From Escherichia phage vB_EcoS_IME542: a stretch of DNA of 46,553 bases. Each line of letters starts with the position of its first letter. Position 1 is the first letter of the stretch. Shown one piece after another: positions 525 to 41,334 of the stretch. The stretch lies in the sequence record MK372342; one strand, written 5' to 3'. A program made the translations under genes and the position numbers. The notes beneath the pieces are model-generated. The model saw only the letters and a list, made by a program, of their open reading frames with translations. It was not told the origin of the DNA and made no database searches.

Positions 525-1445
525 ACTATTCAATAAATCACTCGCTTTATATATCTTCTTCCTGATACCGCTCTTGAATGAGTATTCATCATTTGGTATT
601 ACCACGTCAACGTTCCTGTCATCCGCAACGCAAAGCAATTCCCTATCAAGCTTGCATGCCACTCTCAGCTTGTAGTTTCTAAGCGCATAAGCAACCATCT
701 CCATGTTGTAGCTAGAGTGGCAAACAAGCACACAGCGTTTGCCAGTAGCAAGATGAACGCGAACACCATCAATCCAATTATCGACCAGATAAGCGTACTC
801 ATCATCTTTAAAGGTGCCAATAACAGCAATAGACTGGCGAGTATAATCTTTTGCAGCATAACTAACACCCCCTTCTTCATTGATAAACATTACATTGCAC
901 ATTTCTTCTGATATGCCGTCACTATAAGCCATAAAGCACGGCACTGCGTGTATTAGTTCGCCTGATTTTGTCCTGCCAGCATCAAAACCAAACTCGCTAT
1001 AAATACCCTCGTATATGCTGAGTGGAGTAGATTCTACTCTCTCAGTCCTTTCCATTATCTCCAGGCATCTTTCGTGATCAATCTGTGCGCCCATTTTGTA
1101 GAGCTGGGTTCTTGATGCTTGCTTGTTTGCTTTAACTATAACCTCAATTGGTGTTAAGTTCAGCCAGTCACCAAGCAAATTTACTGAATCGGCGAAGGAC
1201 GATCCAGTGCACTTCATGACCCATCCTATACCGGAGTCACTTCCGCATTTCGAACAAACTGCCGCGCCATTTCCTTTTTCACTGCCTATTTCGTCGGTAA
1301 ATCTGAATCTGTCAGTGCCAAAGCAGTATGGGCATGGTCCGTGCTTCTTACTTAGGTGTCTATCATTCCAACCAAGTTCCTTTGCATAAAATGATTTCCA
1401 CAATCCGGCCATCTTAGGTATAACTTCATTCTTATCGTAATTCAT
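522..1445 (-). CDS. DNA primase (zinc-ribbon, phage/plasmid primase type)
   Basis: N-terminal CPYCFGTDRFRF...CSKCG zinc-ribbon motif typical of P4/T7-type primase Zn-binding domains; 307 aa. Confidence 0.6.
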   Translation of the reverse strand: MNYDKNEVIPKMAGLWKSFYAKELGWNDRHLSKKHGPCPYCFGTDRFRFTDEIGSEKGNGAAVCSKCGSDSGIGWVMKCTGSSFADSVNLLGDWLNLTPIEVIVKANKQASRTQLYKMGAQIDHERCLEIMERTERVESTPLSIYEGIYSEFGFDAGRTKSGELIHAVPCFMAYSDGISEEMCNVMFINEEGGVSYAAKDYTRQSIAVIGTFKDDEYAYLVDNWIDGVRVHLATGKRCVLVCHSSYNMEMVAYALRNYKLRVACKLDRELLCVADDRNVDVVIPNDEYSFKSGIRKKIYKASDLLNS

Positions 1446-1921
1446 TTGCTTAACCCGTGATTTTCGTGAAAGTTGTATTTTCTCTCTGCTTCAATTCTTA
1501 CTTTATACGCCTGCTCTGGAGTATCGAAGTTCCCAAGGTGTAGATGCTTGCCGTCAACCTTGATGTGAGCCTTAAATTTTCCGTGATTTAGCTTTGCCAC
1601 TCCACAATAACCATTTGTTGATAAAACGCTAAGCTTGCAATTTCTTGAGTTACCTTGATTTGTTGTTACTCTTAGGTTTTCTATTCTGTTATCTAATTTG
1701 TTATGGTTTATATGATCAATGTAGTCGCCATTTTGAAGCTCTCCATTAAACATCTCCCACACAACTCTATGTACATAAGTCCTAAAGCCATTAACAGACA
1801 CTTTGTAATAGCCAGATGTAGATAGTGAGTTGCACTCATCGCCAACCTTAACACGTCTTGCAGTGCTAATCTTCCAATGCAATTTGCCATCTACATAGTA
1901 AAAATAATCATGCCAGTTCAT
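1442..1921 (-). CDS. HNH homing endonuclease (HNH + AP2-like C-terminus), paralog 1 of 5
   Basis: MNWHDYFYY...DHINHNKLDNRIENLRV HNH motif; shares N- and C-terminal motifs with ORFs at 20312, 32960, 42296, 43536. Confidence 0.85.
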   Translation of the reverse strand: MNWHDYFYYVDGKLHWKISTARRVKVGDECNSLSTSGYYKVSVNGFRTYVHRVVWEMFNGELQNGDYIDHINHNKLDNRIENLRVTTNQGNSRNCKLSVLSTNGYCGVAKLNHGKFKAHIKVDGKHLHLGNFDTPEQAYKVRIEAERKYNFHENHGLSK

Positions 1922-1972: not shown

Positions 1973-2446
1973 TTACTCTTTAGCTTTTCGTGCTGCTTCG
2001 TTGGCGGCTTTAATTTTTCGCCACGAACGACACTCTGGCTTAGTGGCCAGTTCAGCCTCTGTAACCACGCGCAGCATGTGACGCTTTTTGCAGCGCAGAG
2101 TTAGCGGCTTGCCATTGCCGTCGAATTGCAGGTCTGGTCGGCAGAATGTGGCTCGAAAGCCTTCTCCATTTCGCTTGTAGTAGTTGTGTGAAAGCTGAGC
2201 TCCACGTGCCGATATCATTCCGCGCTTAAACCATTCTTCTACAGCCTGCGGTGTCACCTTTAGCTGCTTTGCGATATTCGCCTTTGTGCCGAAGAAATCA
2301 AGAACAATCTCCAGTCGCGCGCGTAGCCCGGCTCTTACTTCATCTTTTAAAACGTAGTAACCCGATGGTCGTTTTCGTTGTTTTTTGTCTTCAGTGCGGA
2401 CAGTTCCGTTATTGCCGTTAATGGTTCGCTTATCAACTGCATTCAT
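1973..2446 (-). CDS. HTH DNA-binding protein (candidate transcription regulator)
   Basis: 157 aa, basic; helix-turn-helix-like segment ANIAKQLKVTPQAVEEWFKRG; GAGGTGA RBS. Confidence 0.45.
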   Translation of the reverse strand: MNAVDKRTINGNNGTVRTEDKKQRKRPSGYYVLKDEVRAGLRARLEIVLDFFGTKANIAKQLKVTPQAVEEWFKRGMISARGAQLSHNYYKRNGEGFRATFCRPDLQFDGNGKPLTLRCKKRHMLRVVTEAELATKPECRSWRKIKAANEAARKAKE

Positions 2447-2542: not shown

Positions 2543-4537
2543 ATGCTTCCAGTAGAGCGCTTAGTAGCCAACTTTGATCAAGAGAAGATTAAGCAGATTC
2601 AGAAGGATTATCAGTTTGGAGAAATCACGCCATACCCATTCCAGTGCGTGACATTCGACCAAATAGGTAAGCACATCGCTAAGTACGAAGCGCCATTCAT
2701 AGCAGACCTGTCGGTATCGGCAGGTAAGACAATCATTCTTGCCATGATTGGTAAACGCATGGAGCAGCTTGGCCTTCCTTACATGGTGCTTTCTCGCCAG
2801 TCAGAAATCATCAGCCAGAATGCTGAAGAACTCCGTAACTTCGGTATCCGTAATAGCGTATATTGCGCTGGCCTTAACGTTAAATCTGTTTACTACCCAA
2901 CTATAGTGGCAAGTGAAGGAACGGCGGCAAACGGCTTGTTCAAGGGGCTTGGTGACTATGTTCCGGCAGTTATCGCTATTGATGAGTGTCACATGCTAAA
3001 TCATATGGATATTGTCGAAGCCGAAGAGAACGAGGAAACGTTTGAGCAGATGAGCACCGCAAAAGGTGAGATGGTTTTCAAGGATGGTGAATACACGGGG
3101 TTAACTGGTACAGGTCGTTCGCAATACACTTTAATCATTACAGAGATGAAACGCCGTTGCCGTGAGAAATACAAGCGAGAACTACGTATCTTTGGTCTCA
3201 CTGGTAGCCCATACCGTGATAACAATCATATCGTGGTAAGTAATCCTAACATTCGAGGATTTTGGCGTAAGACGGTTATGCAGGTTCCAACCAATTACCT
3301 GGTGGATTTGGGTTTTGTTGTCCCAACTGTTTACGGTGAGGTTGGTGATTTGGGTTATGATCTTGCTGAATTTGCGCCAGATGGTGATGATGGAATCAAA
3401 GACTTCAGTAAGAAAGAAATGGATGCGATGCAGGAAAAAATTCATCAAAACCAGTCCATGACGCAAAAGATTATGCAGTTCGCAGCCAAGTTTATGGAAA
3501 CTCGTAACGCAGCGCTAGTAACTTGTTCAGGCAAGCGGCATTGCGAGGAGGCAGCCGCGGCGCTTCCTGATGGCGTAACCTGGGCTATAGTAACTGACTC
3601 TACTGGTGAGAAAAAACGTCGTGAGATTCTTTCTGACGCAGCTGAAGGTAAGTATAAATTCATCTTTCAGATTGGTTGTCTCACAACCGGCGTGAACGTC
3701 CCGCCATGGGATACGTCAATAATTCTTCGGAAGGTTGGAAGCATCACGTTATTGATTCAACTTTTGGGGCGAGGTATGCGGATTCTTAAGAAGAAGCATA
3801 AGGAAATGGGAATGGTTAAGGATGATCACGTGGTGCTGGACTTCGCTGGTACTCTTGATGATATGGCAGAATTGTACTTTGACCCAATTATAGAGGAGGT
3901 GCAAGACCAGAAATTCAAGTCTTCTAGTAAAGGTGGTGACGAGCCAAGGGTATGTCCAGCTTGTAGCTATGAGAACTCGCCATTTGCTCGTCGTTGTAAT
4001 AATGTTATCGAAGGTAAAAGGTGTGAGCACTTTTTTCAGTTTCGTACCTGTGATGATATTGAAGACACGCAGACAAAAGTTACTATTAAGAAAGGTTGTG
4101 GTGAGAAGAATGATATTGCTGCTAAAAACTGCCGTTGCTGCGGAGAAATGCTTATTGACCCTAACGCAAAGCTGTCTGGAAAGATGTATCGACAAGGGGA
4201 TTGGTTGAGAGTTTACGGATTCAGTATTGGGTTAACTAAAAACCAAAACGGGATCGTTGCTCGCTATGAAATCATGGCTCACAGCGGTGACAGGTTTGTT
4301 GCTTACGAAACTTTCTTTCCAGAGAGTGATCATCGCGTTTGCTCTGTGAAGTGGAAGGCGTTTTGCCAAACTCACATCGCTAACAAAACAGAAGCATTTC
4401 GCATCGGGAGACTGCGTAATGCAAGAATGATTATGACTAACGCAAGTCAATTTCGTGAGCCTTTGCGGGTGACTCATAGAAAAAATCAGAAAGGTCAGGA
4501 TATCATTGCAAACAAATCTTTTACTATGGAGGATTGA
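2543..4537 (+). CDS. SF2 (DExH-type) helicase with C-terminal zinc-ribbon region
   Basis: Walker A VSAGKT, motif II IDECH, C-terminal CPACSY...CRCCG cysteine pairs; 664 aa. Confidence 0.7.
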   Translation: MLPVERLVANFDQEKIKQIQKDYQFGEITPYPFQCVTFDQIGKHIAKYEAPFIADLSVSAGKTIILAMIGKRMEQLGLPYMVLSRQSEIISQNAEELRNFGIRNSVYCAGLNVKSVYYPTIVASEGTAANGLFKGLGDYVPAVIAIDECHMLNHMDIVEAEENEETFEQMSTAKGEMVFKDGEYTGLTGTGRSQYTLIITEMKRRCREKYKRELRIFGLTGSPYRDNNHIVVSNPNIRGFWRKTVMQVPTNYLVDLGFVVPTVYGEVGDLGYDLAEFAPDGDDGIKDFSKKEMDAMQEKIHQNQSMTQKIMQFAAKFMETRNAALVTCSGKRHCEEAAAALPDGVTWAIVTDSTGEKKRREILSDAAEGKYKFIFQIGCLTTGVNVPPWDTSIILRKVGSITLLIQLLGRGMRILKKKHKEMGMVKDDHVVLDFAGTLDDMAELYFDPIIEEVQDQKFKSSSKGGDEPRVCPACSYENSPFARRCNNVIEGKRCEHFFQFRTCDDIEDTQTKVTIKKGCGEKNDIAAKNCRCCGEMLIDPNAKLSGKMYRQGDWLRVYGFSIGLTKNQNGIVARYEIMAHSGDRFVAYETFFPESDHRVCSVKWKAFCQTHIANKTEAFRIGRLRNARMIMTNASQFREPLRVTHRKNQKGQDIIANKSFTMED

Positions 4538-4773: not shown

Positions 4774-5189
4774 AAATCACAGATAAAGAAGATTACATTG
4801 AGTTTTACCCTGGTGCTGTAAAGTCATGCCCAAAGGAGGACGACGAACAGATCTTTTGCTCTGATTGGGTTAAGTATCATTACCCTCAGATTGTTTACTG
4901 GCACACAGTTAATGAAGGGATGAAATCAATTGGGTCAGCAAGGAAGGATGCAGCTAAAGGGCTCCTTAAGGGCGTATCAGACTGCTTATTCCTGATACCT
5001 GAATCACTTCGCGGAAAGTACCCTTTCGGAGCCATAGAGCTAAAGAGGGCTGGCAAAACCCAGGCTAGCACAGTCAGCGACGAACAAAAGTCTTTCCTTA
5101 AAAGCGTAAGAGAATCAGGTGGTTTCTCCGCTGTAGCCTATGGGCGCGAAGGTTTTCTTGCAGCATTCAAAGAAATGATTTCAAAATAG
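4770..5189 (+). CDS. VRR-NUC / PD-(D/E)XK-like nuclease
   Basis: D-x(n)-E-L-K arrangement (DCLFL...GAIELKRAGK); 139 aa; stop TAG lies inside the TAGCA box. Confidence 0.5.
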   Translation: MKITDKEDYIEFYPGAVKSCPKEDDEQIFCSDWVKYHYPQIVYWHTVNEGMKSIGSARKDAAKGLLKGVSDCLFLIPESLRGKYPFGAIELKRAGKTQASTVSDEQKSFLKSVRESGGFSAVAYGREGFLAAFKEMISK

Positions 5190-5247
5190 CACGAATTGCT
5201 AAAGACGAATTGGTGAGTTGGTGTATTATCAACTCATCGAAACGAAA
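5187..5247 (+). promoter_or_regulatory. boxed promoter element: TAGCAcgaatTGCTA, TGTATTAT -10, CATCGAAACGAAA leader
   Basis: Read directly; shares architecture with 14 other copies. Confidence 0.55.
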
Positions 5248-5267
5248 CAAGCAAAGAGAGAAAGAAA

Positions 5268-6383: not shown

Positions 6384-7514
6384 ATGGCAACTGCAAAAAT
6401 AACCAACGAACAGCTTCGTGAAGAACTAGCGAGCGGCATGACTAACAAAGCAATAGCAGAGAAGTACGGTATGAATATTCGCAATGTTGAATTGCGTCGT
6501 AGTAAGCTAGCTAAGGCTGGAGATGGGCACGGTAGAGATGTAAGCAACCTTATTCCTCAAGGTTATGCAGTTAAGGGTGTATCAAGTCTTATTGGTGCTG
6601 ATGGTGAGATTAAGCAGCAGTGGGTTAAGTCTGACATCGACAAAGAGAAGCAAGAAGAGATGATGTTTCAGGCTATTGAAGCGCTTACTGATGAATTGCC
6701 GCGCGAGAAGCCTAGAGCATTAAGAGTTGGTTTGTGGGAAGACACTTTAAGTCTTTATCCTGTTTTTGATATGCACATTGGAGCAATGGCGCACCATGCA
6801 GAATGCGGGGAGAATTACAGTACTGAAATCGCAGAGCGTGTCCTTAATGATTATTTTGATTACGCTGTTGCTAAGGCTCCTTGTTCTAAGAAAGCAGTAT
6901 TGCTGATTGGTGGCGACTTCCTCCACTCAGATGGATTGGAAGCTGTTACGCCTACTAGTCATCATGTGCTGGACCAGGATAGCCGATACCATAAGCTTGT
7001 TTACGTAGCGGTTCGAGCGACTCGGCGAGCAATTAGCCGGATGCTTGATAAGCATAAAGAAGTTGAAGTTCAGATTATTCCAGGTAACCACGACCTTTCG
7101 GGTATGATTTGGTTGCGTGCAGCAATGGCGGCATTCTATATGGATGAGCCAAGGGTAAATGTTGATGCTTCACCTGCTGCGTTGCACGTAACTCAGTTTG
7201 GCAAGACGCTTCTTGGATACTGTCATGGTCATGAGCTTCGCAAGCCAGATACTCGCTTATCAACTTTGGCACGTGACCACCGCAAGGCGTTTGGTGAATC
7301 AGAATATGTTTATACCCATTCGGGCCATTATCACCATCAAACGATTACAGAAGGTAACTTGGGTATTGATGAGTCTCATGGTCAGCTTGGTGCGAAAGAT
7401 GCTTACAGCGCAAACGGTGGTTATCGCTCTTATCGCCAGGCGTCTGTAATAATCTACAGCCCTAAATTCGGCGAGATTGGTCGATTCACTTGTCGCCCAG
7501 AAATGTTTAGCTAA
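6384..7514 (+). CDS. calcineurin-like metallophosphoesterase with N-terminal HTH-like domain
   Basis: Motifs DMHIG, GGDFLHSDG, IPGNHDL, GHYHH; N-terminal MTNKAIAEKYGMNIRNVELRRSKL. Confidence 0.6.
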   Translation: MATAKITNEQLREELASGMTNKAIAEKYGMNIRNVELRRSKLAKAGDGHGRDVSNLIPQGYAVKGVSSLIGADGEIKQQWVKSDIDKEKQEEMMFQAIEALTDELPREKPRALRVGLWEDTLSLYPVFDMHIGAMAHHAECGENYSTEIAERVLNDYFDYAVAKAPCSKKAVLLIGGDFLHSDGLEAVTPTSHHVLDQDSRYHKLVYVAVRATRRAISRMLDKHKEVEVQIIPGNHDLSGMIWLRAAMAAFYMDEPRVNVDASPAALHVTQFGKTLLGYCHGHELRKPDTRLSTLARDHRKAFGESEYVYTHSGHYHHQTITEGNLGIDESHGQLGAKDAYSANGGYRSYRQASVIIYSPKFGEIGRFTCRPEMFS

Positions 7515-7572
7515 TAGCACTTTTTGCATAACCAATGCCGTAGAAATGCGGCATAATCACCGCATCGAAACT
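7515..7572 (+). promoter_or_regulatory. boxed promoter element (TAGCActtttTGCAT, hairpin TGCCG/CGGCA, CATAAT, CATCGAAAC)
   Basis: Read directly. Confidence 0.5.
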
Positions 7573-7598
7573 AGATAAACTAAACGAGTAAACACAAA

Positions 7599-9343: not shown

Positions 9344-10927
9344 TTACCCCAGCAGTCTTGGATTGATGTAAATTTTATCACCAATCAGGCACGTATAGTT
9401 TTTTTCGTCCAGCATCGGAATCAAATGGTCCTTAATACGAGTCATGATTCCAGCTTGAGCTTCAAAAGGTTTAACCTTTCGCGCAGCTTCATACAATGAG
9501 CGAACACCAACGACACCCTTACCATTTTTTCCTTGCTTAATCAGAATATCAACCAGCTTATTCATCTCAGCATTATCACCGGCGTGACCAGCGGCACTAG
9601 CGGATGACAAATAAGTCTTGCTTAGTTCGTTAAAAATCATAACCGCCTCCTGCATTGTCTCAAGCTCAATCTCCCTGGACTTCTGGGGGCTCGACCCTGC
9701 TGGTGCGAACCAGTTACGAATAACGTGCAGCACAGAGGCGATACGAATTGCTTGCTTATCAAACTTACCTAGAGCGCCACGTAACATTGTGTGAGAGTAC
9801 TTACCACCATCACCAAGGTGCGGTTCCATTTCCTGACGCGCGCGGTTCAGGTAACACATTGAAGAGGCACTTACAGTTAGTTTCACTTCGACTTCACTCA
9901 TAATCTCATGAACGAGACGGAAGTAATCAGCCTTCAGCCCACCGTCAATAGCCTCATATGTTGAGTCACCATTCTCGTCAACAAACACGCGGTCTCCAAG
10001 GAATGACTTCTCACGCACAAGCAAGAAACGTTCTGACACACCGATACCACGCGCACCAGCATTCATGATCGCGTTGATGGTCTCATCCTGTGCGATAACA
10101 GAGATGCAGCCCATAGCGACAAAGCTCATGTTATTTTCAGCGTTCGCACGCGCAATAGAAACGTTACCAGCATCCCATGCTTTCAGCACAAGCTCGCTGT
10201 TCGTTTTCTTTGAGCCATCACCATAGGTCATGCCAAGTAGTGAGTTTACGCTCGTTGCCTCATCAGAGATTACTGCGAAGTTGCCCTGTCGGTTGTTTAT
10301 TCGCGCAAGACCTTCCGGCGTGGTGTCGGATACGGGGAAAACGATATCGCACAGCTTTTCCAGCTTCTCTTCTAAATCTTCTTTTTCCTCAAAAAGTGAA
10401 GCCATCTCTGACGGAGATTTTTCCTGCTTCATCTCTTTGGATAATGCAGATAGTTTGGCAATAATCTTTTTGCGCTCGCGCTTTCGCACTTCATTAATCC
10501 GCTCAGTCTCAGCAATCATTGGGGCAATTGAAAGCGAGTTAATTGCTGATTTACCAGTTGATGGTGGCTGGCTTGTTACGACGTAGAGCGCGGTTGGCTG
10601 CTGATTTCCGTGATACTCAACAGTAAATCGACCAAGCATGGCGGCAGAAATGCACCCCAGAAAGTGCATATAAGCTGAAGACTCAGGGAATTGAACCGAA
10701 CGAGCAATGTTAGCTGATAACTTGCCCACAACATCAATATCATTACCTAGTGAGATTACAGGGTACTTATCATTTGCAGCATCAATCTCGACCGGAGCCT
10801 TCCAGAATGATTGGGACTGTCGATAACCATTAGCATTAATAGCCACGCGAAGCGGTGGAAGGTTGTCGGTCGCAGCAATTGCCATAACCTGCTCAACAGA
10901 TAGTTTATCTTCGTTGAAATCAAACAT
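9344..10927 (-). CDS. P-loop NTPase, putative replication-associated ATPase (deviant Walker A QPPSTGKS)
   Basis: Walker A-like PPSTGKSA and Walker B-like AVISDEAT; ATG 10927 with GGAG RBS preferred over track GTG 10969; 527 aa. Confidence 0.5.
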   Translation of the reverse strand: MFDFNEDKLSVEQVMAIAATDNLPPLRVAINANGYRQSQSFWKAPVEIDAANDKYPVISLGNDIDVVGKLSANIARSVQFPESSAYMHFLGCISAAMLGRFTVEYHGNQQPTALYVVTSQPPSTGKSAINSLSIAPMIAETERINEVRKRERKKIIAKLSALSKEMKQEKSPSEMASLFEEKEDLEEKLEKLCDIVFPVSDTTPEGLARINNRQGNFAVISDEATSVNSLLGMTYGDGSKKTNSELVLKAWDAGNVSIARANAENNMSFVAMGCISVIAQDETINAIMNAGARGIGVSERFLLVREKSFLGDRVFVDENGDSTYEAIDGGLKADYFRLVHEIMSEVEVKLTVSASSMCYLNRARQEMEPHLGDGGKYSHTMLRGALGKFDKQAIRIASVLHVIRNWFAPAGSSPQKSREIELETMQEAVMIFNELSKTYLSSASAAGHAGDNAEMNKLVDILIKQGKNGKGVVGVRSLYEAARKVKPFEAQAGIMTRIKDHLIPMLDEKNYTCLIGDKIYINPRLLG

Positions 10928-10939
10928 CTTAATACTCCA

Positions 10940-11000
10940 TCTCGTTAATATGCGGGCATTATATAACACCCGCTCAGTATGTCTTTATCTTTTAGTGCTA
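10940..11000 (-). promoter_or_regulatory. boxed promoter element (degenerate box, -10 TATAAT within hairpin loop GCGGG/CCCGC)
   Basis: Minus strand reads TAGCACTAAAAGATA ... GAGCGGG-tgttatataat-GCCCGC ... AACGAGATGGAG. Confidence 0.45.
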
Positions 11001-11699: not shown

Positions 11700-11770
11700 C
11701 CTTTCGTTGTTTCGTTTCGATGGAAAGATAATACCGCATCCTTGCGATTTCGTTTTAGCAATTCGTGCTA
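11700..11770 (-). promoter_or_regulatory. boxed promoter element (perfect TAGCAcgaatTGCTA, hairpin CGCA-agga-TGCG, TATTAT, CATCGAAACGAAA)
   Basis: Read directly on minus strand. Confidence 0.55.
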
Positions 11771-11916
11771 TTTCTTGCCTTTTCTATCGCCTTGAGCATA
11801 ATCTCGTGGCTTTCCAGCAAGTCCTCACGAAACCAGTCACCACAAGGCCAGCCCTTTCCGCTATAGGCGCTGATGACCTCAAGATCGAAATAATTTATCT
11901 CAGATGGTAGTAGCAT
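11755..11916 (-). CDS. hypothetical small protein (53 aa) whose C-terminus NSTNC-stop is encoded by the palindromic box
   Basis: Hand-translated MLLPSEINYFDLEVISAYSGKGWPCGDWFREDLLESHEIMLKAIEKARNSTNC; GGAGG RBS. Confidence 0.35.
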   Translation of the reverse strand: MLLPSEINYFDLEVISAYSGKGWPCGDWFREDLLESHEIMLKAIEKARNSTNC

Positions 11917-12591: not shown

Positions 12592-12831
12592 TTAGTGCTG
12601 CTTTGCTGTGTAAAACTTCCAGTCATCCTGGACTTCAATCAATGTACCTTTGGCGATCATTGAGTTGAGGCTATCTTCAGTAAGGAGAGTTCTCAACCAG
12701 GTGTATTTGTTGCCTACTCGAACATTGCCACAGTTATTAAACACGCTACCGTTTACCAACATCATCTCAACGCCTTTTGAGCCAGGCTTAGTGAAGAGAC
12801 GTTTTTCTGTTTTAGTGGTCTGAATGCTCAT
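12592..12831 (-). CDS. hypothetical protein (ATG 12831; track ORF extended to 13020 through the promoter element)
   Basis: MSIQTTKTEKRLF... starts 10 nt after GGAGA RBS downstream of boxed promoter. Confidence 0.5.
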   Translation of the reverse strand: MSIQTTKTEKRLFTKPGSKGVEMMLVNGSVFNNCGNVRVGNKYTWLRTLLTEDSLNSMIAKGTLIEVQDDWKFYTAKQH

Positions 12832-12843
12832 TTTTTTATCTCC

Positions 12844-12914
12844 GGTGTGTTCGTTTCGTTTCGATGAAGTAACTATACGCCATCCTTGGCATTGAGGTTT
12901 AGCAATTCGTGCTA
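12844..12914 (-). promoter_or_regulatory. boxed promoter element (perfect box, hairpin GCCA-agga-TGGC, TATAGT, CATCGAAACGAAACGAA)
   Basis: Read directly on minus strand. Confidence 0.55.
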
Positions 12915-13204
12915 TTGCGTTCGATGTATGCATTAATTTCTTCAGAAGTTTCCATTGCGGAGCGGAAAGCGCCTTTTGCGTGGCGAGCATCACGGAATGA
13001 CTGGAAGAATTTACGAGCAACGTTTGCGAACATCGCGCCAGTTATACGAGCATCACCGAAATTAGTTTCGATTGAGTTACTGATGCCATCACGGAACTCA
13101 TTCTCAGTCATGAACATTTCAGCAATTTCAGCGGTGGCGAAAAGGTCTGCCAGTGATTGCATATTTTCGTGGTCAGCTTTAGTGAAAAGGTTCATGTTAA
13201 TCAT
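12899..13204 (-). CDS. hypothetical protein; C-terminus NSTNC-stop encoded by the palindromic box
   Basis: 101 aa; GGAGA RBS; first gene of minus-strand early block. Confidence 0.5.
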   Translation of the reverse strand: MINMNLFTKADHENMQSLADLFATAEIAEMFMTENEFRDGISNSIETNFGDARITGAMFANVARKFFQSFRDARHAKGAFRSAMETSEEINAYIERNSTNC

Positions 13205-13221
13205 TTTCGTGTCTCCGTGAG

Positions 13222-13285
13222 TTCTTCGTTTCGATGGAGTAATAATAGCAAATCACTCCTGATTGGTCATTAGCAAAAAGTGCTA
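13222..13285 (-). promoter_or_regulatory. boxed promoter element (perfect box TAGCActttttGCTA, hairpin AATCA/TGATT, extended -10 TGcTATTAT, CATCGAAACGAAG)
   Basis: Read directly on minus strand. Confidence 0.55.
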
Positions 13286-13305
13286 TTCGTTGGATTTATT
13301 GATTC

Positions 13306-13400
13306 TTGCAGATATTGCAATGATTCACCTCATTATTGCACATATAGCAATATTGTATCTGATGCAATGATGTTTTTGATTGTTGCGAATTTAGCAATTA
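13306..13400. repeat. cluster of short WWGCAAT motifs (ATTGCAAT, ATAGCAAT, GATGCAAT, TTAGCAAT, TTGCAC, TTGCGAAT) in divergent control region
   Basis: At least six copies within ~100 bp read directly; ATTGCAAT is itself palindromic. Confidence 0.45.
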
Positions 13401-13549
13401 TTTGTGTGGGAGTGAATGAATAGAGGAAGGACTACCATACAAGTTGATTTTGATTCTGGCTGAGCCATTTTGGATGTACACGTTACCGAAGTTATGTTGT
13501 GTAGATGCACCCACCCTCCGTAGGAATGCTGTACGCCTATAACGCGCAA

Positions 13550-13635
13550 TTACGCAATGGTTACATAATAATATCTATATATATCAACCTTTTACTTTAT
13601 TATTATTATTATTATTATATATATGTATATCTTGT
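13550..13635 (+). repeat. copy A of ~85 bp direct repeat with (TTA)7 microsatellite in divergent non-coding region
   Basis: TTACGCAATGGTTACATAATAATATCTATATATATCAACCTTTTACT(TTA)n... nearly identical to 40753..40835. Confidence 0.7.
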
Positions 13636-13800
13636 ATATCTGTCATATGGGGAGGGTCGATAGTTTTTTATGAAAATGACTATATTTATCTATATTAATA
13701 TATATAGGTATACCCCCGACATTTCCGCGGAAATTCATACACACGACATTTACACCGCTTCTGGCGCGGCTCTCAGAGTGGTTTGGCGTATCTGGCTGAA

Positions 13801-13846
13801 AATAACATGAGATAACACTTGATAACATGTAGATGTGTGATACTAT
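13801..13846 (+). promoter_or_regulatory. candidate early promoter: three phased 10-bp repeats (AATAACATGA GATAACACTT GATAACATGT), -35 TTGATA, 16 nt spacer, extended -10 TGaTACTAT
   Basis: Read directly; about 40 nt upstream of RBS AGGAG and start 13889. Confidence 0.5.
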
Positions 13847-13888
13847 GGATGCATCTTAACGAAGAGCAACCAATCAGGAGTAATAAGA

Positions 13889-14407
13889 ATGTCAGAACGT
13901 AAAGAAGCAGTAAGTCTTGGTGAAGTAGCTCGCTACATGGCGACTCAGGCTTTAAATAGCGACACGAAATCATTTGCAGTACCAGTGCGTATGATTGTTC
14001 GCCAGGTGTACGGGCTTAGCAAGGAGGAAATTAGCAAGGTTTATGATGAAGACCTTAAGCCGGATGGTAAGTACAATCTCAATAAGCTGAAGTCCTCATA
14101 CGTTTCAAACACAGTAAGTCGCATGCCTGAAATTAAGGCTGCAAACGTCAGGTCCATGTTCTCGATAAAGGATATGGAGTTTAATGGTGAGGAGGTTCGT
14201 TCTGCGGTAATCTCGCTTGTTCCTGGTGCAATCAATCATGGCTCACGAAGCAAAGCAGGGGAAGAGAGGGAGGCGGCTATCATTGAGAAGTTCAAGAAGC
14301 GACTTCTTGCAGTTACTCCGAGCGTAATCCACCTGAAAGGCGAGGAGCTTAATGGCGCAATGTTCGCACTAACCGCTTACCAGGAACTTATCAAGGAGAC
14401 CAAATAA
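13889..14407 (+). CDS. hypothetical early protein (first gene of plus-strand early operon)
   Basis: 172 aa; AGGAG RBS 8 nt upstream. Confidence 0.55.
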   Translation: MSERKEAVSLGEVARYMATQALNSDTKSFAVPVRMIVRQVYGLSKEEISKVYDEDLKPDGKYNLNKLKSSYVSNTVSRMPEIKAANVRSMFSIKDMEFNGEEVRSAVISLVPGAINHGSRSKAGEEREAAIIEKFKKRLLAVTPSVIHLKGEELNGAMFALTAYQELIKETK

Positions 14408-14941
14408 TGGGAATGTTTGATTTCAATGATGTGAAGCTAAGTGGCGAGGAAATCGTAAGAATTGCGCAGCGTGATGGTTACTCAATTCTTCGCGTGGCAA
14501 TCAGTAATAACTGATATCGGCAAACTCAGCGCTTCTGGGGTCGCCCTGATGCATCGTCAATCTACAAAGGTAGCGAGCATGCGGTTCTTGTTAATCTAAT
14601 TAGGAAAATGGGAAGAAACGGGAAAAGGGGTGCTTGGTGTTAGGTCATTATACGAAGGCCTCAGGAAATCAAAACCAGTTGATTCACGTAATGTCAGACT
14701 AATGGCGAGGCTTCAGGAGGGACTTATCCCAGACCTAGAGAAGATGAATCTCGTCTGCATGATTGGTGATAAGATTTATGTTCACCCTGCAATCCTTGAT
14801 GAGTGTTGGGAACCTAACTTCAAAGTATACGAAGGTGAGCATCCTAGTAGACTACCATACCACTTGCGTTACAGTGAGGAGGAGGTTGAGATGGCTATGA
14901 AGTTCTATCGGAAAGCTAAATTACTCCTGACTGGGAAATAG
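14407..14941 (+). pseudogene. disrupted, internally deleted paralogue of the P-loop ATPase gene (9344..10927): N-terminal and C-terminal homology only, in-frame TGA and a frameshift
   Basis: MGMFDFNDVKLSGEEIVRIAQRDGYSILRVAISNN-stop-YRQTQRFWGRP matches ATPase N-terminus MFDFNEDKLSVEQVMAIAATDNLPPLRVAINANGYRQSQSFWKAP; GVRSLYEGLRKSKP...LVCMIGDKIYVHP matches ATPase C-terminus GVRSLYEAARKVKP...YTCLIGDKIYINP. Confidence 0.5.
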
Positions 14942-15000
14942 CACTTTTTGCCTAACGTAATAATGCCAAGGATGGCATAATCATCTCATCGAAACGAGAG
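14939..15000 (+). promoter_or_regulatory. boxed promoter element (box TAGCActtttTGCCT, hairpin GCCA-agga-TGGC, extended -10 TGgCATAAT, CATCGAAACGAGAG)
   Basis: Read directly. Confidence 0.55.
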
Positions 15001-15018
15001 ATGCAAAGGAAAAATAAA

Positions 15019-15237
15019 ATGAACAAGACAATCACACTGCAATGCATTAAGACAAATAACCCAGAATTTATTAAAGTTCACAAATATTTAGCAACCCTGG
15101 TAGACGGTAAAACATGGGCAGTTAAAGGTGGCTTCCAGGATTACAAATTCCCACTTGAGCACATACCTGGCGGAAACCTTGGTTTTGTTAGTAGCTGCCG
15201 CTCAGTTAAGTTCGTTTTTGAAGTGGTAATGAAATAG
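15019..15237 (+). CDS. hypothetical protein (second ATG with AAAGGA RBS preferred)
   Basis: 72 aa; stop TAG inside next box. Confidence 0.45.
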   Translation: MNKTITLQCIKTNNPEFIKVHKYLATLVDGKTWAVKGGFQDYKFPLEHIPGGNLGFVSSCRSVKFVFEVVMK

Positions 15238-15418: not shown

Positions 15419-15675
15419 GTAACTACGATCGAGAAATTATTGGGATTGATGGAACTGTGACAAAAGTAGATGTTTATCGTGTTCTTGATGCGTTCGGTGT
15501 ATCGGACCCGGCCACGCAGCATGCGATAAAGAAGATGCTTTGCACTGGCTTGCGTGGCCACAAGGATTACCTGACTGACCTTAATGACTCAATTGAATCA
15601 TTGCAGAAGGCTAAAGAGCTTTACGGTCAGAGAGTGATTAACGAGTCGGCCAAACCAAAACTTAATGTTAAATAG
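15415..15675 (+). CDS. hypothetical protein
   Basis: 86 aa ORF. Confidence 0.5.
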   Translation: MSNYDREIIGIDGTVTKVDVYRVLDAFGVSDPATQHAIKKMLCTGLRGHKDYLTDLNDSIESLQKAKELYGQRVINESAKPKLNVK

Positions 15676-15734
15676 CACTTTTTGTTAAAACTCCAGGGAA
15701 GGAGTTTGGCATAATAGCTTCATCGAAACGAGAG
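15673..15734 (+). promoter_or_regulatory. boxed promoter element (box, hairpin AAACTCC-agggaa-GGAGTTT, extended -10 TGgCATAAT, CATCGAAACGAGAG)
   Basis: Read directly. Confidence 0.55.
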
Positions 15735-15745
15735 AGGGATTCAAG

Positions 15746-16181: not shown

Positions 16182-16315
16182 TTTACGTTCATACGTACTA
16201 CACGGGAAAATTTAACAGCGTTAAGCACGTTAGAGTGCACGATAGCTACGAGAGCGCAAAGGCGCAATGGCTGGTTCTTGGCGGTGACATTAATTCATAT
16301 AAAATCGCTGAATAG
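16178..16315 (+). CDS. hypothetical small protein (45 aa)
   Basis: MIYVHTYYTGKFNSVKHVRVHDSYESAKAQWLVLGGDINSYKIAE; stop TAG inside box. Confidence 0.35.
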   Translation: MIYVHTYYTGKFNSVKHVRVHDSYESAKAQWLVLGGDINSYKIAE

Positions 16316-16374
16316 CACTAATTGATAAAACAGGGTTGGGGTAATTTGGTATAGTTACCCTATCAAACGAGATG
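16313..16374 (+). promoter_or_regulatory. boxed promoter element (box TAGCActaatTGATA, hairpin GGGTAA/TTACCC, extended -10 TGgTATAGT)
   Basis: Read directly. Confidence 0.5.
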
Positions 16375-17665: not shown

Positions 17666-17740
17666 GCTCTGTTAGCTTAATGGAGAAAGCCGCAGCCTTC
17701 TAAGCTGTTGATGGTGGTTCAACTCCACCACGGAGCGCCA
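17666..17740 (+). tRNA. tRNA-Arg (anticodon UCU), CCA encoded
   Basis: Hand-folded cloverleaf: acceptor GCTCTGT/ACGGAGC, D-arm GCTT-AATGGAGA-AAGC, anticodon stem GCAGC/GCTGT with loop CTTCTAA, T-arm GGTGG-TTCAACT-CCACC, discriminator G, CCA. Confidence 0.7.
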
Positions 17741-18676: not shown

Positions 18677-20251
18677 ATGACTGATGTTTTAGTTTGGGAG
18701 GAACTATCCCAATCAGAGAAACAGGCGATTAAGCTACTATCCACCCACAACTTCGAAACATTCCTTCGTGTGTGGTTCAGCATCACGCAAGGGCAGAAGT
18801 ATATAATGAACTGGCATCATAGATACCTATGCAGGATTGTTGATGAGATTATTAGCGGAGAGCGAAAGGATACAATCATAAATGTATCACCTGGCGCCGG
18901 AAAAACCGAAATCACGTCCATTCACTTTCCTGTTTATAGTTACCTCAAGCTACCAAAAGTTCGTAACCTTAGCCTGTCATTCTCTGATAGCCTGGTCAAG
19001 CGAAACTCTAAGCGAGTTAGGGACCTTATTAAATCAATGGAGTTCCAGGAGTTATTCCCAAGCAGGTTCGGTACGTGTAAGGATGACGAGATTCAGGTGC
19101 TTGATGAATCAGGAAAGGTTAGATTTGAGTCAATATCAAAGGCTATTGGAGGGCAAATAACCGGATCGAGAGGTGGTTACATTACGGATACTTATAGCGG
19201 CTGCCTGATGCTGGATGACGTTGATAAAGTTGATGACATGCTTAGCAAGGTGAGGCGTGAAGCAGTACATATGCTTCTAAAGAACACAATTCGCTCTCGT
19301 CGGGCAAGTTCGGTAAAAGGAAAAGCAACACCAATTATATCAATACAGCAGCGATTGCATGTGAACGATAGCTCGTGGTTCATGGCTGAATCTGGGGGTA
19401 TGGGTATAGATTTCGATGTTGTGAAGATTCCAGCGATAGTTACTGAGGATTACATCGACACGCTCCCTGACTGGCTAAAGCCACACTTCGAGGCTGATGT
19501 TCTATCTAGCGAGTACATCGAGCGAGATGGGGTTAAATACTACAGCTACTACCCACAGAAGGAATCCATTCATGATTTAATGGCAATGCAGGACGCGGAC
19601 CCATATACGTTCGCAAGCCAATATATGCAAAGCCCAATAGCTCTCGGTGGCAACATGATTGATACGGATTGGTTTATTCGTTACGGTGGGGATTTGCGAG
19701 CGCCATTAAAGTATGACTACCGATTCATCACTGCGGATACCGCGCTCACGACTAAGTCGTACAGTGACTTTAGCGTGTTCCAGTTGTGGGGCGTTAAGGA
19801 TAGAAAGCTATACCTTCTTGATATGGTTAGGGGTAAGTATGAGGCACCGGAACTCGAGGCAACACTATTGGACTTTGAGGCCAAAGCAAGAGCCACTAGT
19901 CGAGAGGAGGGGATACTTCGCAAGGTAATAATCGAGAAGAAAGCGTCAGGTATCGGCTTAATTCAATCTGCAAGTAGGGTTATGCGCACACCGATTGAGC
20001 CATTTATACCAGATACAGACAAGGTAACTCGCGTACTTTCTGCCATGCCTCAGATTAAGGCTGGCAATGTCATGATACCAGAGTCAGCGCCGTGGATGAG
20101 TGCACTCATCTCTGAGTTTTCAGCATTTACAGCAGACCTATCTCACCGCCATGATGACATTGTAGACACAACAACCATGGCAATAAACTGTGAGCTAAAT
20201 TTAGCCGACGATGCAAAACTAAGAATGCTGCGCCTTGCTGGGATTAAGTAG
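18677..20251 (+). CDS. terminase large subunit
   Basis: 524 aa; Walker A-like VSPGAGKTE, Walker B-like CLMLDDVDK; position before portal. Confidence 0.8.
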   Translation: MTDVLVWEELSQSEKQAIKLLSTHNFETFLRVWFSITQGQKYIMNWHHRYLCRIVDEIISGERKDTIINVSPGAGKTEITSIHFPVYSYLKLPKVRNLSLSFSDSLVKRNSKRVRDLIKSMEFQELFPSRFGTCKDDEIQVLDESGKVRFESISKAIGGQITGSRGGYITDTYSGCLMLDDVDKVDDMLSKVRREAVHMLLKNTIRSRRASSVKGKATPIISIQQRLHVNDSSWFMAESGGMGIDFDVVKIPAIVTEDYIDTLPDWLKPHFEADVLSSEYIERDGVKYYSYYPQKESIHDLMAMQDADPYTFASQYMQSPIALGGNMIDTDWFIRYGGDLRAPLKYDYRFITADTALTTKSYSDFSVFQLWGVKDRKLYLLDMVRGKYEAPELEATLLDFEAKARATSREEGILRKVIIEKKASGIGLIQSASRVMRTPIEPFIPDTDKVTRVLSAMPQIKAGNVMIPESAPWMSALISEFSAFTADLSHRHDDIVDTTTMAINCELNLADDAKLRMLRLAGIK

Positions 20252-20294
20252 CACTTTTTGTTAAAAGAATAACTCAAGGATGAGTTATCATAAT
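20249..20294 (+). promoter_or_regulatory. boxed promoter element in front of HNH gene (box TAGCActttttGTTA, hairpin ATAACTCA-agga-TGAGTTAT, CATAAT)
   Basis: Read directly; terminase stop TAG is the first three bases of the box. Confidence 0.5.
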
Positions 20295-20311: not shown

Positions 20312-20836
20312 ATGATTAAGCGAACTGAAATTTACGATATAGCAATAGATTATCTTACATACGACGGTGTTAATGTTTTATGGAAGAAGAAGATAAAAAA
20401 GAGTAAGTACTACCCTGGAGATGTTGCTGGAACAATTGACTTTCAGGGGTATATTAGGGTTGCTCTATTCAGAAAACCAGTAATGGCGCACAGGTTCGCT
20501 TGGGAGTTTATTAATGGACCAATACCTGACGGTATGCAAGTTGACCATATAAACCACAACAGGTCCGATAATAGAATTGAGAACTTAAGGTTAGTCACCC
20601 ATCATGAGAACTCAGTAAACATAAAGATGCCGAAGAACAACACATCTGGTCACATTGGCGTTCACTACAATAAAAACAGGGGGACCTGGCAAGCTTCGAT
20701 AGGTGGGCGCAACAAAGAAACTCATGAGCATCTTGGGTGTTTTCACAACAGGGAGGACGCAATAAAGGCAAGAAAGATAGCTGAGATTAGGCTTGGTTAT
20801 CACAAAAACCATGGCAAGACAGATGATGAAATCTGA
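20312..20836 (+). CDS. HNH homing endonuclease, paralog 2 of 5 (between terminase and portal)
   Basis: VDHINHNRSDNRIENLRLVT HNH motif, C-terminal GYHKNHGK. Confidence 0.85.
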   Translation: MIKRTEIYDIAIDYLTYDGVNVLWKKKIKKSKYYPGDVAGTIDFQGYIRVALFRKPVMAHRFAWEFINGPIPDGMQVDHINHNRSDNRIENLRLVTHHENSVNIKMPKNNTSGHIGVHYNKNRGTWQASIGGRNKETHEHLGCFHNREDAIKARKIAEIRLGYHKNHGKTDDEI

Positions 20837-28181: not shown

Positions 28182-28838
28182 ATGGCCCATCTTAGTAACG
28201 GCACTCAGGTCTTCGTAGAAGGCACCAGGGGAGCTACTATCGACGTAACCGCGATTTCCAACGCCGTTACTCCTGTTTTAACTTTATCCAGCGTTGAAGA
28301 TATTGCTCGCGGTGATTACCTTCTGTTTACCAGCTCAGCTTCAACCCTGCTGGCTGACAAGCAAGTTCGCGTTACCGCAGTATCTGGTTCAACTGTAACC
28401 GTTGAAGGTATTGATACCTCCAACACCACCAAGTTCCCGGCCGGTTTAACTGGCGAAGTGGTTAAGATTCTTAGCTGGTTTGAGGTTCCTTGTGTTCAGG
28501 ACGTATCCACTGACGGTGGTGAACAGCAGTTCGTTAACTTCCAGTGTTTGTCCGATGACCGTGAACAGCAGATTCCAACCTATAAGTCTGCTGTAACTAA
28601 CACCTACACGTTCGCGCACGAATACACCAACCCTGTATATCCGGTTCTGCGTAACTACGATGAGTCTGGCCAGGTTGTTGCGATTCGTCTGTTCGTACCT
28701 CGAGCTAGCGAAATGCGCTTGCAGTCCGGCACTATCGCTTTCAACGACACCCCTACCATTGGTGTTAACGAAATCGAAACGGTATCCATCGCAGTATCAA
28801 TTCGTGGTCGCCTGTCCTCTGTGGCAGCTGAAGTTTAA
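28182..28838 (+). CDS. major tail protein (putative)
   Basis: 218 aa; AAGGAAAA RBS; followed by strong terminator; precedes chaperone and tape measure genes. Confidence 0.6.
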   Translation: MAHLSNGTQVFVEGTRGATIDVTAISNAVTPVLTLSSVEDIARGDYLLFTSSASTLLADKQVRVTAVSGSTVTVEGIDTSNTTKFPAGLTGEVVKILSWFEVPCVQDVSTDGGEQQFVNFQCLSDDREQQIPTYKSAVTNTYTFAHEYTNPVYPVLRNYDESGQVVAIRLFVPRASEMRLQSGTIAFNDTPTIGVNEIETVSIAVSIRGRLSSVAAEV

Positions 28839-28844
28839 AACACA

Positions 28845-28868
28845 AACCCTCTTCGGAGGGTTTTTTAT
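28845..28868 (+). terminator. rho-independent terminator
   Basis: AACCCTC-ttcg-GAGGGTT followed by TTTTTT. Confidence 0.75.
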
Positions 28869-28872
28869 TGCA

Positions 28873-28933
28873 TAGCACTTTTTGCTAAAGCACTTATTCA
28901 GCTTTACTGTATAGTTATCTCATCGAAACGAAA
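28873..28933 (+). promoter_or_regulatory. boxed promoter element (perfect box TAGCActttttGCTA, hairpin AAAGC/GCTTT, TATAGT, CATCGAAACGAAA)
   Basis: Read directly. Confidence 0.55.
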
Positions 28934-28948
28934 TGAGAGATTAAAGAA

Positions 28949-29197
28949 ATGAATAACGTTAAAAACATCATCAAACTTGCTGCAGTTCTTGTTGCTTTTT
29001 ATGCAGTAGTTCAGATTGTTAACCCAACTGGTGAGGCTGATGCCAATAGCAAGGCAAACAAATATACCGTTGAGTTCGCTAAAGCTGAGCGAGCATGTCA
29101 GGAGCTTGTGGGTAGTAAAGTTGACCAAATCATGAAATATGGCAAAGAGGTCTGCAAGGACTCAGCTGCTAAGATTGCAAAAGAAAACACTAAGTAA
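28949..29197 (+). CDS. small secreted or membrane-anchored protein (possible moron)
   Basis: N-terminal hydrophobic IIKLAAVLVAFYAVVQIV; own boxed promoter; inserted between major tail and chaperone genes. Confidence 0.45.
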   Translation: MNNVKNIIKLAAVLVAFYAVVQIVNPTGEADANSKANKYTVEFAKAERACQELVGSKVDQIMKYGKEVCKDSAAKIAKENTK

Positions 29198-40609: not shown

Positions 40610-40675
40610 TGTGTTTCGTTTCGATGGAGTAACTATAGCAAAGGATGATTACGGAGTCTTTAGCTATTCGTGCTA
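40610..40675 (-). promoter_or_regulatory. boxed promoter element (box TAGCAcgaatAGCTA, extended -10 TGcTATAGT, CATCGAAACGAAACAC)
   Basis: Read directly on minus strand. Confidence 0.55.
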
Positions 40676-40752
40676 TTGTATACGCGTAACCGATGTAACT
40701 CGGTGTATACAATCTCGTCCGCGGAAAATGGTATACGCGCTGTTACGCCTAG

Positions 40753-40835
40753 TTACGCATTAGTTACATTAAAATATCTATATATATCAACCTTTTACTC
40801 TTATTATTATTATTATTATATATTACTGTGTATAT
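40753..40835 (+). repeat. copy B of ~85 bp direct repeat with (TTA)5, in second divergent non-coding region; flanked by GTATAC-containing repeats
   Basis: TTACGCATTAGTTACATTAAAATATCTATATATATCAACCTTTTACTC(TTA)n; matches 13550..13635. Confidence 0.7.
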
Positions 40836-40986
40836 CATGTAACTACTTCTATAGAGTGTTCCGGTTATAATTTTAATATCATGTGGATTTATACAGTATT
40901 GCGCGGCAGCTATACCGATGCACCCTTAGCGAGAAACGGTATACACGATATACACACTAGTTACATTAAGCTATATCTGGGCCGAG

Positions 40987-41334
40987 ATGCCAGAAAGCGT
41001 AACCATTGGCAATGTCTACACGAAATTACAAGGATTCACGCGTAAGTATGAGTCAACGATTGGCAAAACCAATTGGACTAGCTACCGTGCCGAATATATA
41101 GTTAACCCATCGAAAGCAAACAACCAGAGAGATAGAGAAATGACCTACTACATTATCAAAGAGAAAAACAACGCACTGTTCGGCGATTGCTACTTTGGTG
41201 GCCCTGCTGGATACACAACGGATAAAAACGAGGCTGACAGATTCGAGACCAAAGAAGAAGCCCGCGATGTTCTGACCGGGTGCTTCACTGAAGAAGATTT
41301 GAAATCTGTTAAGGTAGTTAAGGTTAAGGAATAA
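40987..41334 (+). CDS. hypothetical protein (alternative start ATG 41140 with purine-rich RBS)
   Basis: 115 aa ORF; no good RBS at 40987. Confidence 0.4.
   Translation: MPESVTIGNVYTKLQGFTRKYESTIGKTNWTSYRAEYIVNPSKANNQRDREMTYYIIKEKNNALFGDCYFGGPAGYTTDKNEADRFETKEEARDVLTGCFTEEDLKSVKVVKVKE

Follow-up and report, generated by a model that had tools for sequence, protein, structure and literature searches.

In phage SPP1, two separated origin-type copies, oriL and oriR, place initiator boxes beside an AT-rich region, and one of them lies in the replication and recombination cluster. The lambda ori, pSC101 and R6K gamma origins carry several replicon-specific short words beside an AT-rich unwinding element, sometimes with an IHF site, and these words differ between related replicons and match the replicon's own initiator; in the core origins of SV40 and papillomaviruses, short inverted words on either side of an AT tract are recognised by an AAA+ helicase with its own DNA-binding domain. 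T1 is a classic coliphage, and we know of no report that locates its origin of replication. The genome papers of phages TLS and SU57 describe a search for a replication origin that found none, and we found no transcript maps or origin mapping for T1-like phages in the literature searched. Here we analysed the complete, circularly permuted genome of Escherichia phage vB_EcoS_IME542 (MK372342; the whole 46,553-nt sequence is called the window), a T1-like siphophage of the Drexlerviridae, and we describe an AT-rich module of which one copy, A, lies in the non-coding region A (13205-13888) and a second, B, in region B (40592-41139). As a pair of elements shared across the family, the module is newly recognised. 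We put at roughly 0.4 the probability that both copies are paralogous elements of the replication-origin type, at which binding, melting and initiation would take place.

The two copies coincide with the weakest duplexes in the genome. A nearest-neighbour scan places the two least stable segments at 13564-13623 and 40765-40824 (z=5.4 and 5.0), with core z-scores of 5.4 and 5.0 for module A and 5.0 and 4.8 for module B. The scan covered seven genomes, which we count as five lineages (named among them are Braunvirinae, Tunavirinae, Tempevirinae and Webervirus): the window, Rtp, JulesPiccard, TR1, T1 (Tunavirinae), TLS (Tempevirinae) and KP36 (Webervirus). Both copies are present throughout, and in seven of seven genomes the two lowest segments of 60 and 100 bp are A and B (z=4.3-6.0). 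The next least stable segment reaches z=2.8-3.8, or 4.8 in KP36 at 60 bp. ATATATA 7-mers are nearly confined to the two regions, which make up 2.6% of the genome (14 of 16 in the window, 18 of 20 in T1), and a region-A copy also occurs in Rogunavirinae and Nouzillyvirus phages. The scan gives a simple rule for locating the modules in any Drexlerviridae genome: take the two global minima of duplex stability.

The initial annotation had noted an AT-rich segment of ~85 bp with a (TTA)7 tract in region A and proposed that it recurs almost exactly at 40753..40835. The segment is present, with (TTA)7 at 13597-13617, and its recurrence is well beyond chance (BLASTN E ~1e-25; block-shuffle control z=17.6), but the copies are less than nearly exact: identity is 85% over the stretch first noted (75/88 columns) and 80% over the ~110 bp to which similarity extends (13527-13645 versus 40730-40846). 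Within this length both copies contain the identical 27-nt core AATATCTATATATATCAACCTTTTACT (13570-13596 and 40773-40799), followed by (TTA)7 in A and (TTA)6 in B. A larger '250-bp unit' was considered and dropped, as its flanks are not significantly alike. The modules of T1, TLS and KP36 show at most weak sequence similarity to that of the window, and each of these phages has an A–B paralogous pair of its own. In each of four lineages the within-genome A–B pair is the top-scoring comparison (z=17.6, 7.7, 8.7 and 29.9), against z of −0.4 to 6.1 for module pairs drawn from different lineages, such that copies A and B resemble each other more than they resemble their counterparts in other subfamilies. 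Because the A–B pair always scores best, the two copies are kept matched within each genome.

A common grammar organizes both copies. Four words stand to the left of a TA-rich core that contains an IHF-consensus match, TATCAACCTTTTA (13582-13594 in module A), and (TTA)n with TATATA, and words on the opposite strand follow on the right. In A as in B, successive left words stand 9-11 bp from one another along the edge of the AT core, and inverted words occupy the right edge: the (T/A)AC triplets of the A array (TAC, AAC, TAC, TAC) start at 13532, 13541, 13551 and 13562, and the counterpart in B has four TAC (40734, 40744, 40754 and 40765). To the right of the core, the opposite-strand words are GTATATC twice in A and ATATACAC with AGTTACAT in B. 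Region B, which has further clusters of these words on either side of its module, holds 4 of the 5 genomic copies of AGTTACAT, 6 of the 9 of RTATACRC and 4 of the 12 of GTTACGC. A composite motif tried around both cores, TCCGCGGAAA followed by N3-5 and TATAC(A/G)C, occurs at chance counts, and only exact TCCGCGGAAA at 13722/13724 and 40718 stands out. The (TTA)n tract had also been taken for a microsatellite that might vary freely in copy number, and this part does not hold. Across 33 distinct copies from genomes, viral contigs and metagenomes, A has 4-7 units and B 4-6 (5 in 16 of 18), and shorter (TTA)n is offset by longer (TA)n, with the tract staying at ~25-28 bp in B copies. This compensation suggests that the constraint acts on AT content and length and not on the trinucleotide itself. 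The core of module B is 97-100% conserved among nine phages, above the neighbouring DNA, and the region-B unit is found in 133 phage records, where it is unannotated or marked only by hypothetical-protein open reading frames (ORFs), in-silico promoters and the ends of flanking genes. IMG/VR searches for the locus anchored on proteins returned few or no loci.

Although the layout is shared, the words differ between lineages. Lineage-specific words of 6-8 bp cluster around both copies. In KP36, regions A and B together hold 13 of 19 genomic copies of GTAAGAT (p about 1e-17; the words were chosen by eye before counting, and such p-values are optimistic). The corresponding fractions are 4 of 8 for GTGAACA in TLS, 4 of 5 for GTGTAAC and 6 of 17 for GATTAAC in T1, and 5 of 9 for both GTTACAT and GTATAC in the window. 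When words of one lineage were counted in regions A and B of another, in seven word-by-genome combinations out of the larger number possible, the count was zero each time. TLS infects E. coli B and the close relatives of the window infect E. coli; the T1 record lists no host. Since words that differ among E. coli phages cannot be explained by a host factor, the protein that reads them should be phage-encoded. Gene order also varies around one copy. With T1 and Rtp as reference, KP36 carries the recE-erf-ssb operon on the opposite strand and at the far side of the tail-fibre gene (rearranged region 29509-35008, versus 29623-34881 in T1), and the second module nevertheless stays just upstream of recE in the same relative orientation.

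This layout matches that of an iteron-type origin with a DNA-unwinding element: phased, replicon-specific words in both orientations stand at the weakest duplex, in two copies, in a phage that encodes an initiator-like AAA+ protein with a winged helix and a primase and has no polymerase gene in its gene set. The initial annotation had raised a candidate origin somewhere in region A. For the shared module the idea is plausible and has been strengthened by the least stable duplex, the flanking iteron-like words, the two-copy layout found across the family and the concerted evolution of the copies; the left half of region A is a different element, as described below. At such an origin, the words to the left and right of the AT tract would be bound by a sequence-specific protein of the phage, which would melt the 60-80-bp TA/(TTA)n tract; loading of the phage helicase and primase would follow, and synthesis would fall to the host polymerase. 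The module measures at least ~120 bp, including the words in opposite orientation beyond the AT tract. We tentatively extend this reading to the origins of T1-like phages in general, as a two-origin (or origin and enhancer) system across the family in which an MCM-like AAA+ protein would read the lineage words around the weakest duplexes; one copy would go with the packaging site, the other with the recombination operon, with the copies matched in each genome. We regard this broader proposal as possible and short of probable.

Two proteins are candidates for the word reader, and each is at present no more than a lead. The favoured one is the DUF3987 protein, whose AlphaFold model (pLDDT 87, pTM 0.85) combines an AAA+ core with a C-terminal winged helix (residues ~455-541); among solved structures the core best matches subunits of MCM2-7 and of archaeal MCM (E down to 8e-6; TM ~0.33). 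Between lineages its winged helix and N-terminal domain are 35-64% identical and its ATPase core 63-77%, and among Braunvirinae, which share words, the winged helix and N-terminal domain are 89-99% identical. Neither the DUF3987 protein nor the primase found a sequence match in the PDB. A sequence relationship between the DUF3987 protein and P4 alpha was tried and rejected, and only the zinc-ribbon domain of the primase is similar to P4 alpha (E=2e-11). The GTG start listed for DUF3987 is probably wrong, since homologues begin 14 codons downstream. The alternative candidate, which could act as initiator or as operator binder, is a Cro-like helix-turn-helix protein whose recognition helix differs between lineages; in TR1, three positions of this helix depart from the window's despite identical region-B words.

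The left half of region A, which the initial annotation overlooked in this respect, is the likely pac region, and its placement in IME542 follows by homology from the position shown in relatives. PhageTerm analyses found a single packaging start in each of two relatives, at 36,862 (forward) in MSK and at 3,615 in TR1 (PMC10450929, PMC8421802), and we carried these termini to the window with a 12-phage alignment (Table 1). The SU57 paper likewise places pac of T1-like phages within the corresponding untranslated region. The T1 record begins in the syntenic gap, with a 2.8-kb terminal repeat annotated from position 1, and the Rtp record is opened at the position that corresponds to window 13346. 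Exact transfer of T1 position 1 was rejected, as the alignment locks on the 21-nt repeat described below, and the T1 end is assigned to the same block only. T1, Rtp, TLS and KP36 have a syntenic gap where the leftward early genes and the rightward operon that leads to the terminase genes diverge. About six WWGCAAT motifs had been reported here; strictly, there are four distinct sites (13315, 13345, 13362 and 13392), of which 13315 is palindromic and also matches on the minus strand at 13314, and with the variants TTGCAGA (13306), TTGCACA (13336) and TTGCGAA (13383) the block amounts to seven words in 93 bp. Strict WWGCAAT occurs 67 times in 46.5 kb, and ~0.1 would be expected in a 93-bp span. 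The word block, found in region A only, is conserved above the flanking leaders, and the stretch that starts with the 21-nt repeat, includes the GCAAT words and ends at the cut site is better conserved than any other part of region A, with a pairwise identity of 77-91%, versus ~50% in the neighbouring spacer. By position and conservation, the GCAAT words are most likely the recognition part of pac. They would presumably be bound by the small terminase, which belongs to the P22 gp3 family; the first cut would fall some tens of bp to the right of the words, and packaging would run rightward. A coding explanation of the block was rejected: stops break up the minus-strand ORF in the window and in TR1 and Msk, and variable columns lack codon periodicity. 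In pac-proximal DNA of T1 (48780-48836 and 1-80) and TLS (49850-49902) GATC sites form clusters, and both phages encode a Dam methylase; the window pac block (13290-13470) has no GATC site. Control of packaging by methylation, confined to some lineages, may account for this difference.

Several observations weigh against an origin and have to be set beside the readings that compete with it. Besides the choice of words by eye, GC skew only tracks gene orientation and gives no origin signal, regions A and B contain no DnaA boxes, beyond ~110 bp the flanks of the two copies show no significant similarity (z=1.7 and −0.5), and long non-coding DNA is generally AT-rich. The IHF-consensus match, one per module, is not enriched genome-wide (5 found versus 3.5 expected), is altered in 4 of 12 region-A copies, is missing in TR1 and is not conserved in T1, leaving it as a weak lead only. 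For the DUF3987 protein, the structural match to MCM is modest (TM ~0.33), the winged helix is a generic fold, and there is no specific similarity to the origin-binding domain of P4 alpha. Moreover, the arrangement of the modules suits regulation equally well. Each precedes an operon, to which both are oriented alike, with the AT core ~190-300 bp before the early operon promoter in every case read (window, TLS and KP36), and in KP36 the module follows the recE operon to its new place. Together with three further phased words that sit on the region A rightward promoter and a conserved helix-turn-helix regulator whose recognition helix differs by lineage, this could mean that the module is a transcriptional control or architectural element, in which regulator operators around bent or meltable AT DNA switch the two early operons downstream, those of DUF7174 and of recE-erf-ssb, on or off in the early-to-late transition. 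This is the main competing reading, and we consider it rather unlikely. Operators 200-300 bp from the promoter, in up to 13 copies (KP36) over a few hundred bp and coupled to the two melting minima, exceed the usual needs of promoter control, TR1 keeps identical region-B words with a recognition helix changed at three positions, and the promoters that can be drawn inside the core are not conserved among copies, the GTTACA-17-TATAAT of window B becoming TATATA in most other B copies.

The same promoter-like sequences could instead mark promoters or genes of short non-coding RNAs, for example a priming or regulatory transcript: hexamers of this kind occur in both cores, including a 10/12 match, GTTACA-17-TATAAT, on the minus strand of B, and public records hold in-silico 'promoter' features there. 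Such hits are at chance in region A, however (6 found versus 4.9 expected), the best one is lost in other B copies, no terminator-like site or Rfam family was found, and any RNA would be almost pure A/U, which makes this explanation improbable. We judge slightly more improbable still that the module is a pacR- or cosB-like site for small terminase and IHF within the packaging signal, with region B a secondary or pseudo pac. Lambda cosB has an IHF site and AT-rich bent DNA flanks the SPP1 pac, and module A both carries an IHF-consensus match and lies ~100-200 bp inside the first packaged end; but region B lacks the TTGCA/GCAAT block and the cut block, MSK and TR1 each have one packaging start, and it is the B copy that is better conserved (97-100%) and that travels with recE, not with the terminase genes. 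A selfish or accidental duplication without function, such as an element like a miniature inverted-repeat transposable element (MITE) or a gene-conversion tract, would account for two similar copies per genome homogenised relative to other lineages, and is the least probable of these alternatives. The copies occupy the same two syntenic places in seven genomes, the region-B unit recurs in 133 phage records with its core conserved at 97-100%, above its neighbours, no bounding terminal inverted repeats were found at a location that is fixed and syntenic in all genomes examined, and the module is absent from E. coli genomes and plasmids. An origin-type element remains our preferred reading of both copies. 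It offers two precise, conserved and unannotated candidate targets per genome in the relatives of a classic T phage, present in >130 public phage records, with lineage words and two candidate binders available for direct testing.

Placed in their regions, the modules are bounded by promoters. The gene-free region of ~600 bp noted initially is real and extends over 684 bp, between a minus-strand gene ending at 13204 and a DUF7174 gene starting at 13889 on the plus strand. Small ORFs within it are not conserved; the minus-strand ORF of relatives meets stop codons in the window and in TR1 and Msk, and codon periodicity is absent from the variable alignment columns. As had been stated, the only other large divergent gap is region B, since the third divergent junction, at 2446/2543, spans just 96 bp; the right border of region B is set by the gene start at 41140, on the basis of the promoter at 41074-41102 and the full-length PHROG match of the product. 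Public records annotate small ORFs or long upstream starts inside A and B (TR1 3595-3744, RobRod40 968-1558 and rtp46 of Rtp, 28260-28658), which are probably spurious because their reading frames are not conserved. Rfam and tRNA scans found no match in either region. The proposed role as an early control hub stands for the edges, where conserved sigma-70-type promoters point outward from both A and B, and does not extend to the central ~500 bp, which is not promoter DNA. Region A can thus be described as a cis-acting hub that runs from promoter to likely pac, module and promoter. The three phased 10-bp repeats reported over the rightward promoter were also found, as ATAACA at 13802, 13812 and 13822, overlapping TTGATA-16-TG-TACTAT (13819-13846). 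This promoter, which drives the plus-strand operon from 13889, is of the extended −10 type and unlike the type with a 21-nt repeat; T1 and TLS have three analogous words at the same site (GATTAACAC and GTGAACA/GGAACA, respectively). Between module A and this promoter lies a variable part containing a 12-bp palindrome, TTTCCGCGGAAA (13722-13733), and two copies of ATAC(C/A)C(C/A)CGACATTT (13710 and 13737). It exists in two unrelated sequence types, one with the palindrome TTTCCGCGGAAA (window, Rtp, ES and G8) and one with repeated TTCCTACA..TGTAGGAA words (JulesPiccard, TR1, Msk, Sd1 and others), and the right half of region A has the look of a regulatory cassette that has been swapped.

The leftward promoters of both regions follow a family design that consists of the 21-nt repeat aaATAGCACnnnTTGnTAA, a TATAGT-like −10 and the invariant leader CATCGAAACGA, and that recurs at a dozen or more genome sites. 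In regions A and B the consensus aaATAGCACnnnTTGnTAAAA occupies 13270-13290 and 40659-40678 of the minus strand, upstream of a gene and oriented with its transcription. The region B rightward promoter serves an operon with a 64-aa gene, exonuclease VIII, Erf and SSB, and the 64-aa product matches phrog_5247 from end to end. Just upstream of its −35, where other promoters have the 21-nt repeat, there is an invariant palindromic word, CGATTGGCAAAACCAATTGG (41050-41075).

The nearest group to IME542 is the Rtp group (Braunvirinae), gene order is collinear with Rtp and T1, and the junction of the sequence ends, from tail fibre to primase, is as in Rtp. Region B is 98.8% identical to that of TR1 and 86-90% identical to those of Rtp, JulesPiccard and many others, the top identity of region A in relatives is 81%, and for an 11-kb stretch of the genome the top match reaches ~84% identity over 63% of its length. 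The only tRNA gene is the tRNA-Arg at 17666. Four HNH_3 genes, likely encoding homing endonucleases, are dispersed across the replication, head, tail and recombination modules, and a 62-nt repeat is common to three of them (20753, 33359 and 42707).

Table 1 Positions of cis-acting elements, candidate readers and other genes in the IME542 genome
Feature	Position (strand)	Content	Conservation
Leftward promoter, minus-strand operon, region A	13226..13290 (-)	21-nt repeat 13270-13290; -35 13265-13270; TG-extended -10 TATTAT 13242-13247; conserved leader CATCGAAACGA 13226-13236	21-nt repeat 91% (12 phages)
Block of seven TTGCA/GCAAT words	13293..13405 (+)	Words at 13306, 13315, 13336, 13345, 13362, 13383, 13392	Mean pairwise identity 88% (12 phages, three taxa)
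Conserved cut block	13406..13470 (+)	Relatives' packaging termini map at 13427 (TR1) and 13435 (MSK); flanked by two copies of TG(T/A)TTTTGATT (13371, 13445)	
Four helically phased words abutting AT core, module A	13527..13567 (+)	GTACGCC, TAACGCG, TTACGCA, GTTACAT	
AT-rich core, module A	13568..13645 (+)	27-nt stretch, (TTA)7, TATATA, then GTATATC twice (13625, 13634)	
Variable right part of region A	13646..13800		Mean identity 51% (12 phages)
Rightward promoter, region A	13802..13846 (+)	TTGATA 13819-13824, 16 bp, TG, TACTAT 13841-13846	-35 and TGnTAnnAT positions kept in 12 phages; surroundings vary
Leftward promoter, lipoprotein operon, region B	40616..40678 (-)	21-nt repeat 40659-40678; -10 TATAGT 40632-40637; leader CATCGAAACGA 40616-40626	
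Left word arrays, module B	40678..40769	First array: GTATACGC (+), GTTACGC (-), AGTTACAT (-), GTATACAC (-), then TCCGCGGAAA; second array (phased, all +): GTATACGC, GTTACGC, GTTACGC, AGTTACAT	88-91% (9 phages)
AT-rich core, module B	40770..40846 (+)	IHF-consensus match 40785-40797; (TTA)6 40801-40818; inverted words GTGTATAT (ATATACAC on minus strand, 40828) and ATGTAACT (AGTTACAT on minus strand, 40837)	
Right word cluster, module B	40939..41003	GTATACAC, ATATACAC, AGTTACAT (+); GTTACGC (-)	89%
Rightward promoter and leader, region B	41051..41139 (+)	TGGACT-17-TATAGT 41074-41102, then leader CATCGAAAG; ATG 41140	
Further copies of promoter design	455-474, 2455-2477, 5183-5250, 7503-7595, 14927-15019, 15661-15735, 16308-16330, 20244-20266, 28868-28953, 42768-42836		
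Further copies of promoter design	11701-11773, 12828-12917 (-)		
DUF3987 protein (candidate word reader)	9344..10969 (-)	T1 gp9 / Rtp67 homologue	
Cro-like helix-turn-helix protein	1973..2446 (-)	157 aa; T1 gp23 / Rtp52 homologue; between primase and helicase genes	
HNH_3 endonuclease genes (four)	1442-1921 (-), 20312-20836, 32960-33430, 42296-42787		
tRNA-Arg	17666-17740	Anticodon TCT	As in related phages

The elements described here can be compared with several known systems. An intergenic 21-nt repeat with the consensus aaATAGCACnnnTTGnTAAAA was reported in TLS with function unknown (PMC11447400), and the transcribed leader word CATCGAAACGA seems not to be discussed in that paper. Like repeats occur here at the leftward promoters of both regions and in ten or more other places, and they are part of the flanking promoters and lie outside the shared AT-rich module. 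A mobile element of the MITE type is a poor comparison for the module, which has no bounding inverted repeats, a fixed syntenic location and no copy in E. coli genomes or plasmids; a search of the same genomes and plasmids gave no match for the pac block either. For the pac region, the likeness is to headful phages such as T1, P22, SPP1 and P1, and consists of synteny with the opening of the T1 record, the termini of relatives, repeated words beside the cut and a small terminase of the P22 gp3 family. The P22 pac lies inside the small-terminase gene, whereas here pac would stand 4.7 kb upstream in an intergenic hub, with putative recognition words.

For the module itself, the SV40 and papillomavirus origins offer an analogy only, as the fold match here is to MCM/Orc-type proteins (TM ~0.33) and not to superfamily 3 helicases. 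Iteron-type theta origins share the general plan, and the differences are words of 6-8 bp on both sides of the AT tract in opposite orientations, the absence of DnaA boxes and a putative initiator. In the satellite phage P4, ori and crr are two cis regions ~4.8 kb apart that share the type 1 repeat GGTGAACAG in both orientations around AT-rich DNA; the window similarly has two separated cis regions carrying the same repeats, and the TLS word GTGAACA resembles the P4 repeat, although regions A and B of the window contain no copies of the P4 type 1 repeat (TGTTCACC) or of GTGAACA, and the separation here is 27 kb one way and 19 kb the other. SPP1, a virulent pac-type siphophage, provides the precedent for two copies in a like arrangement. 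There is no sequence similarity to SPP1, whose initiator G38P and boxes are defined biochemically and whose counterparts here are read from sequence only; in the T1-like phages, one copy stands beside the likely pac region and the arrangement is kept across the whole family.

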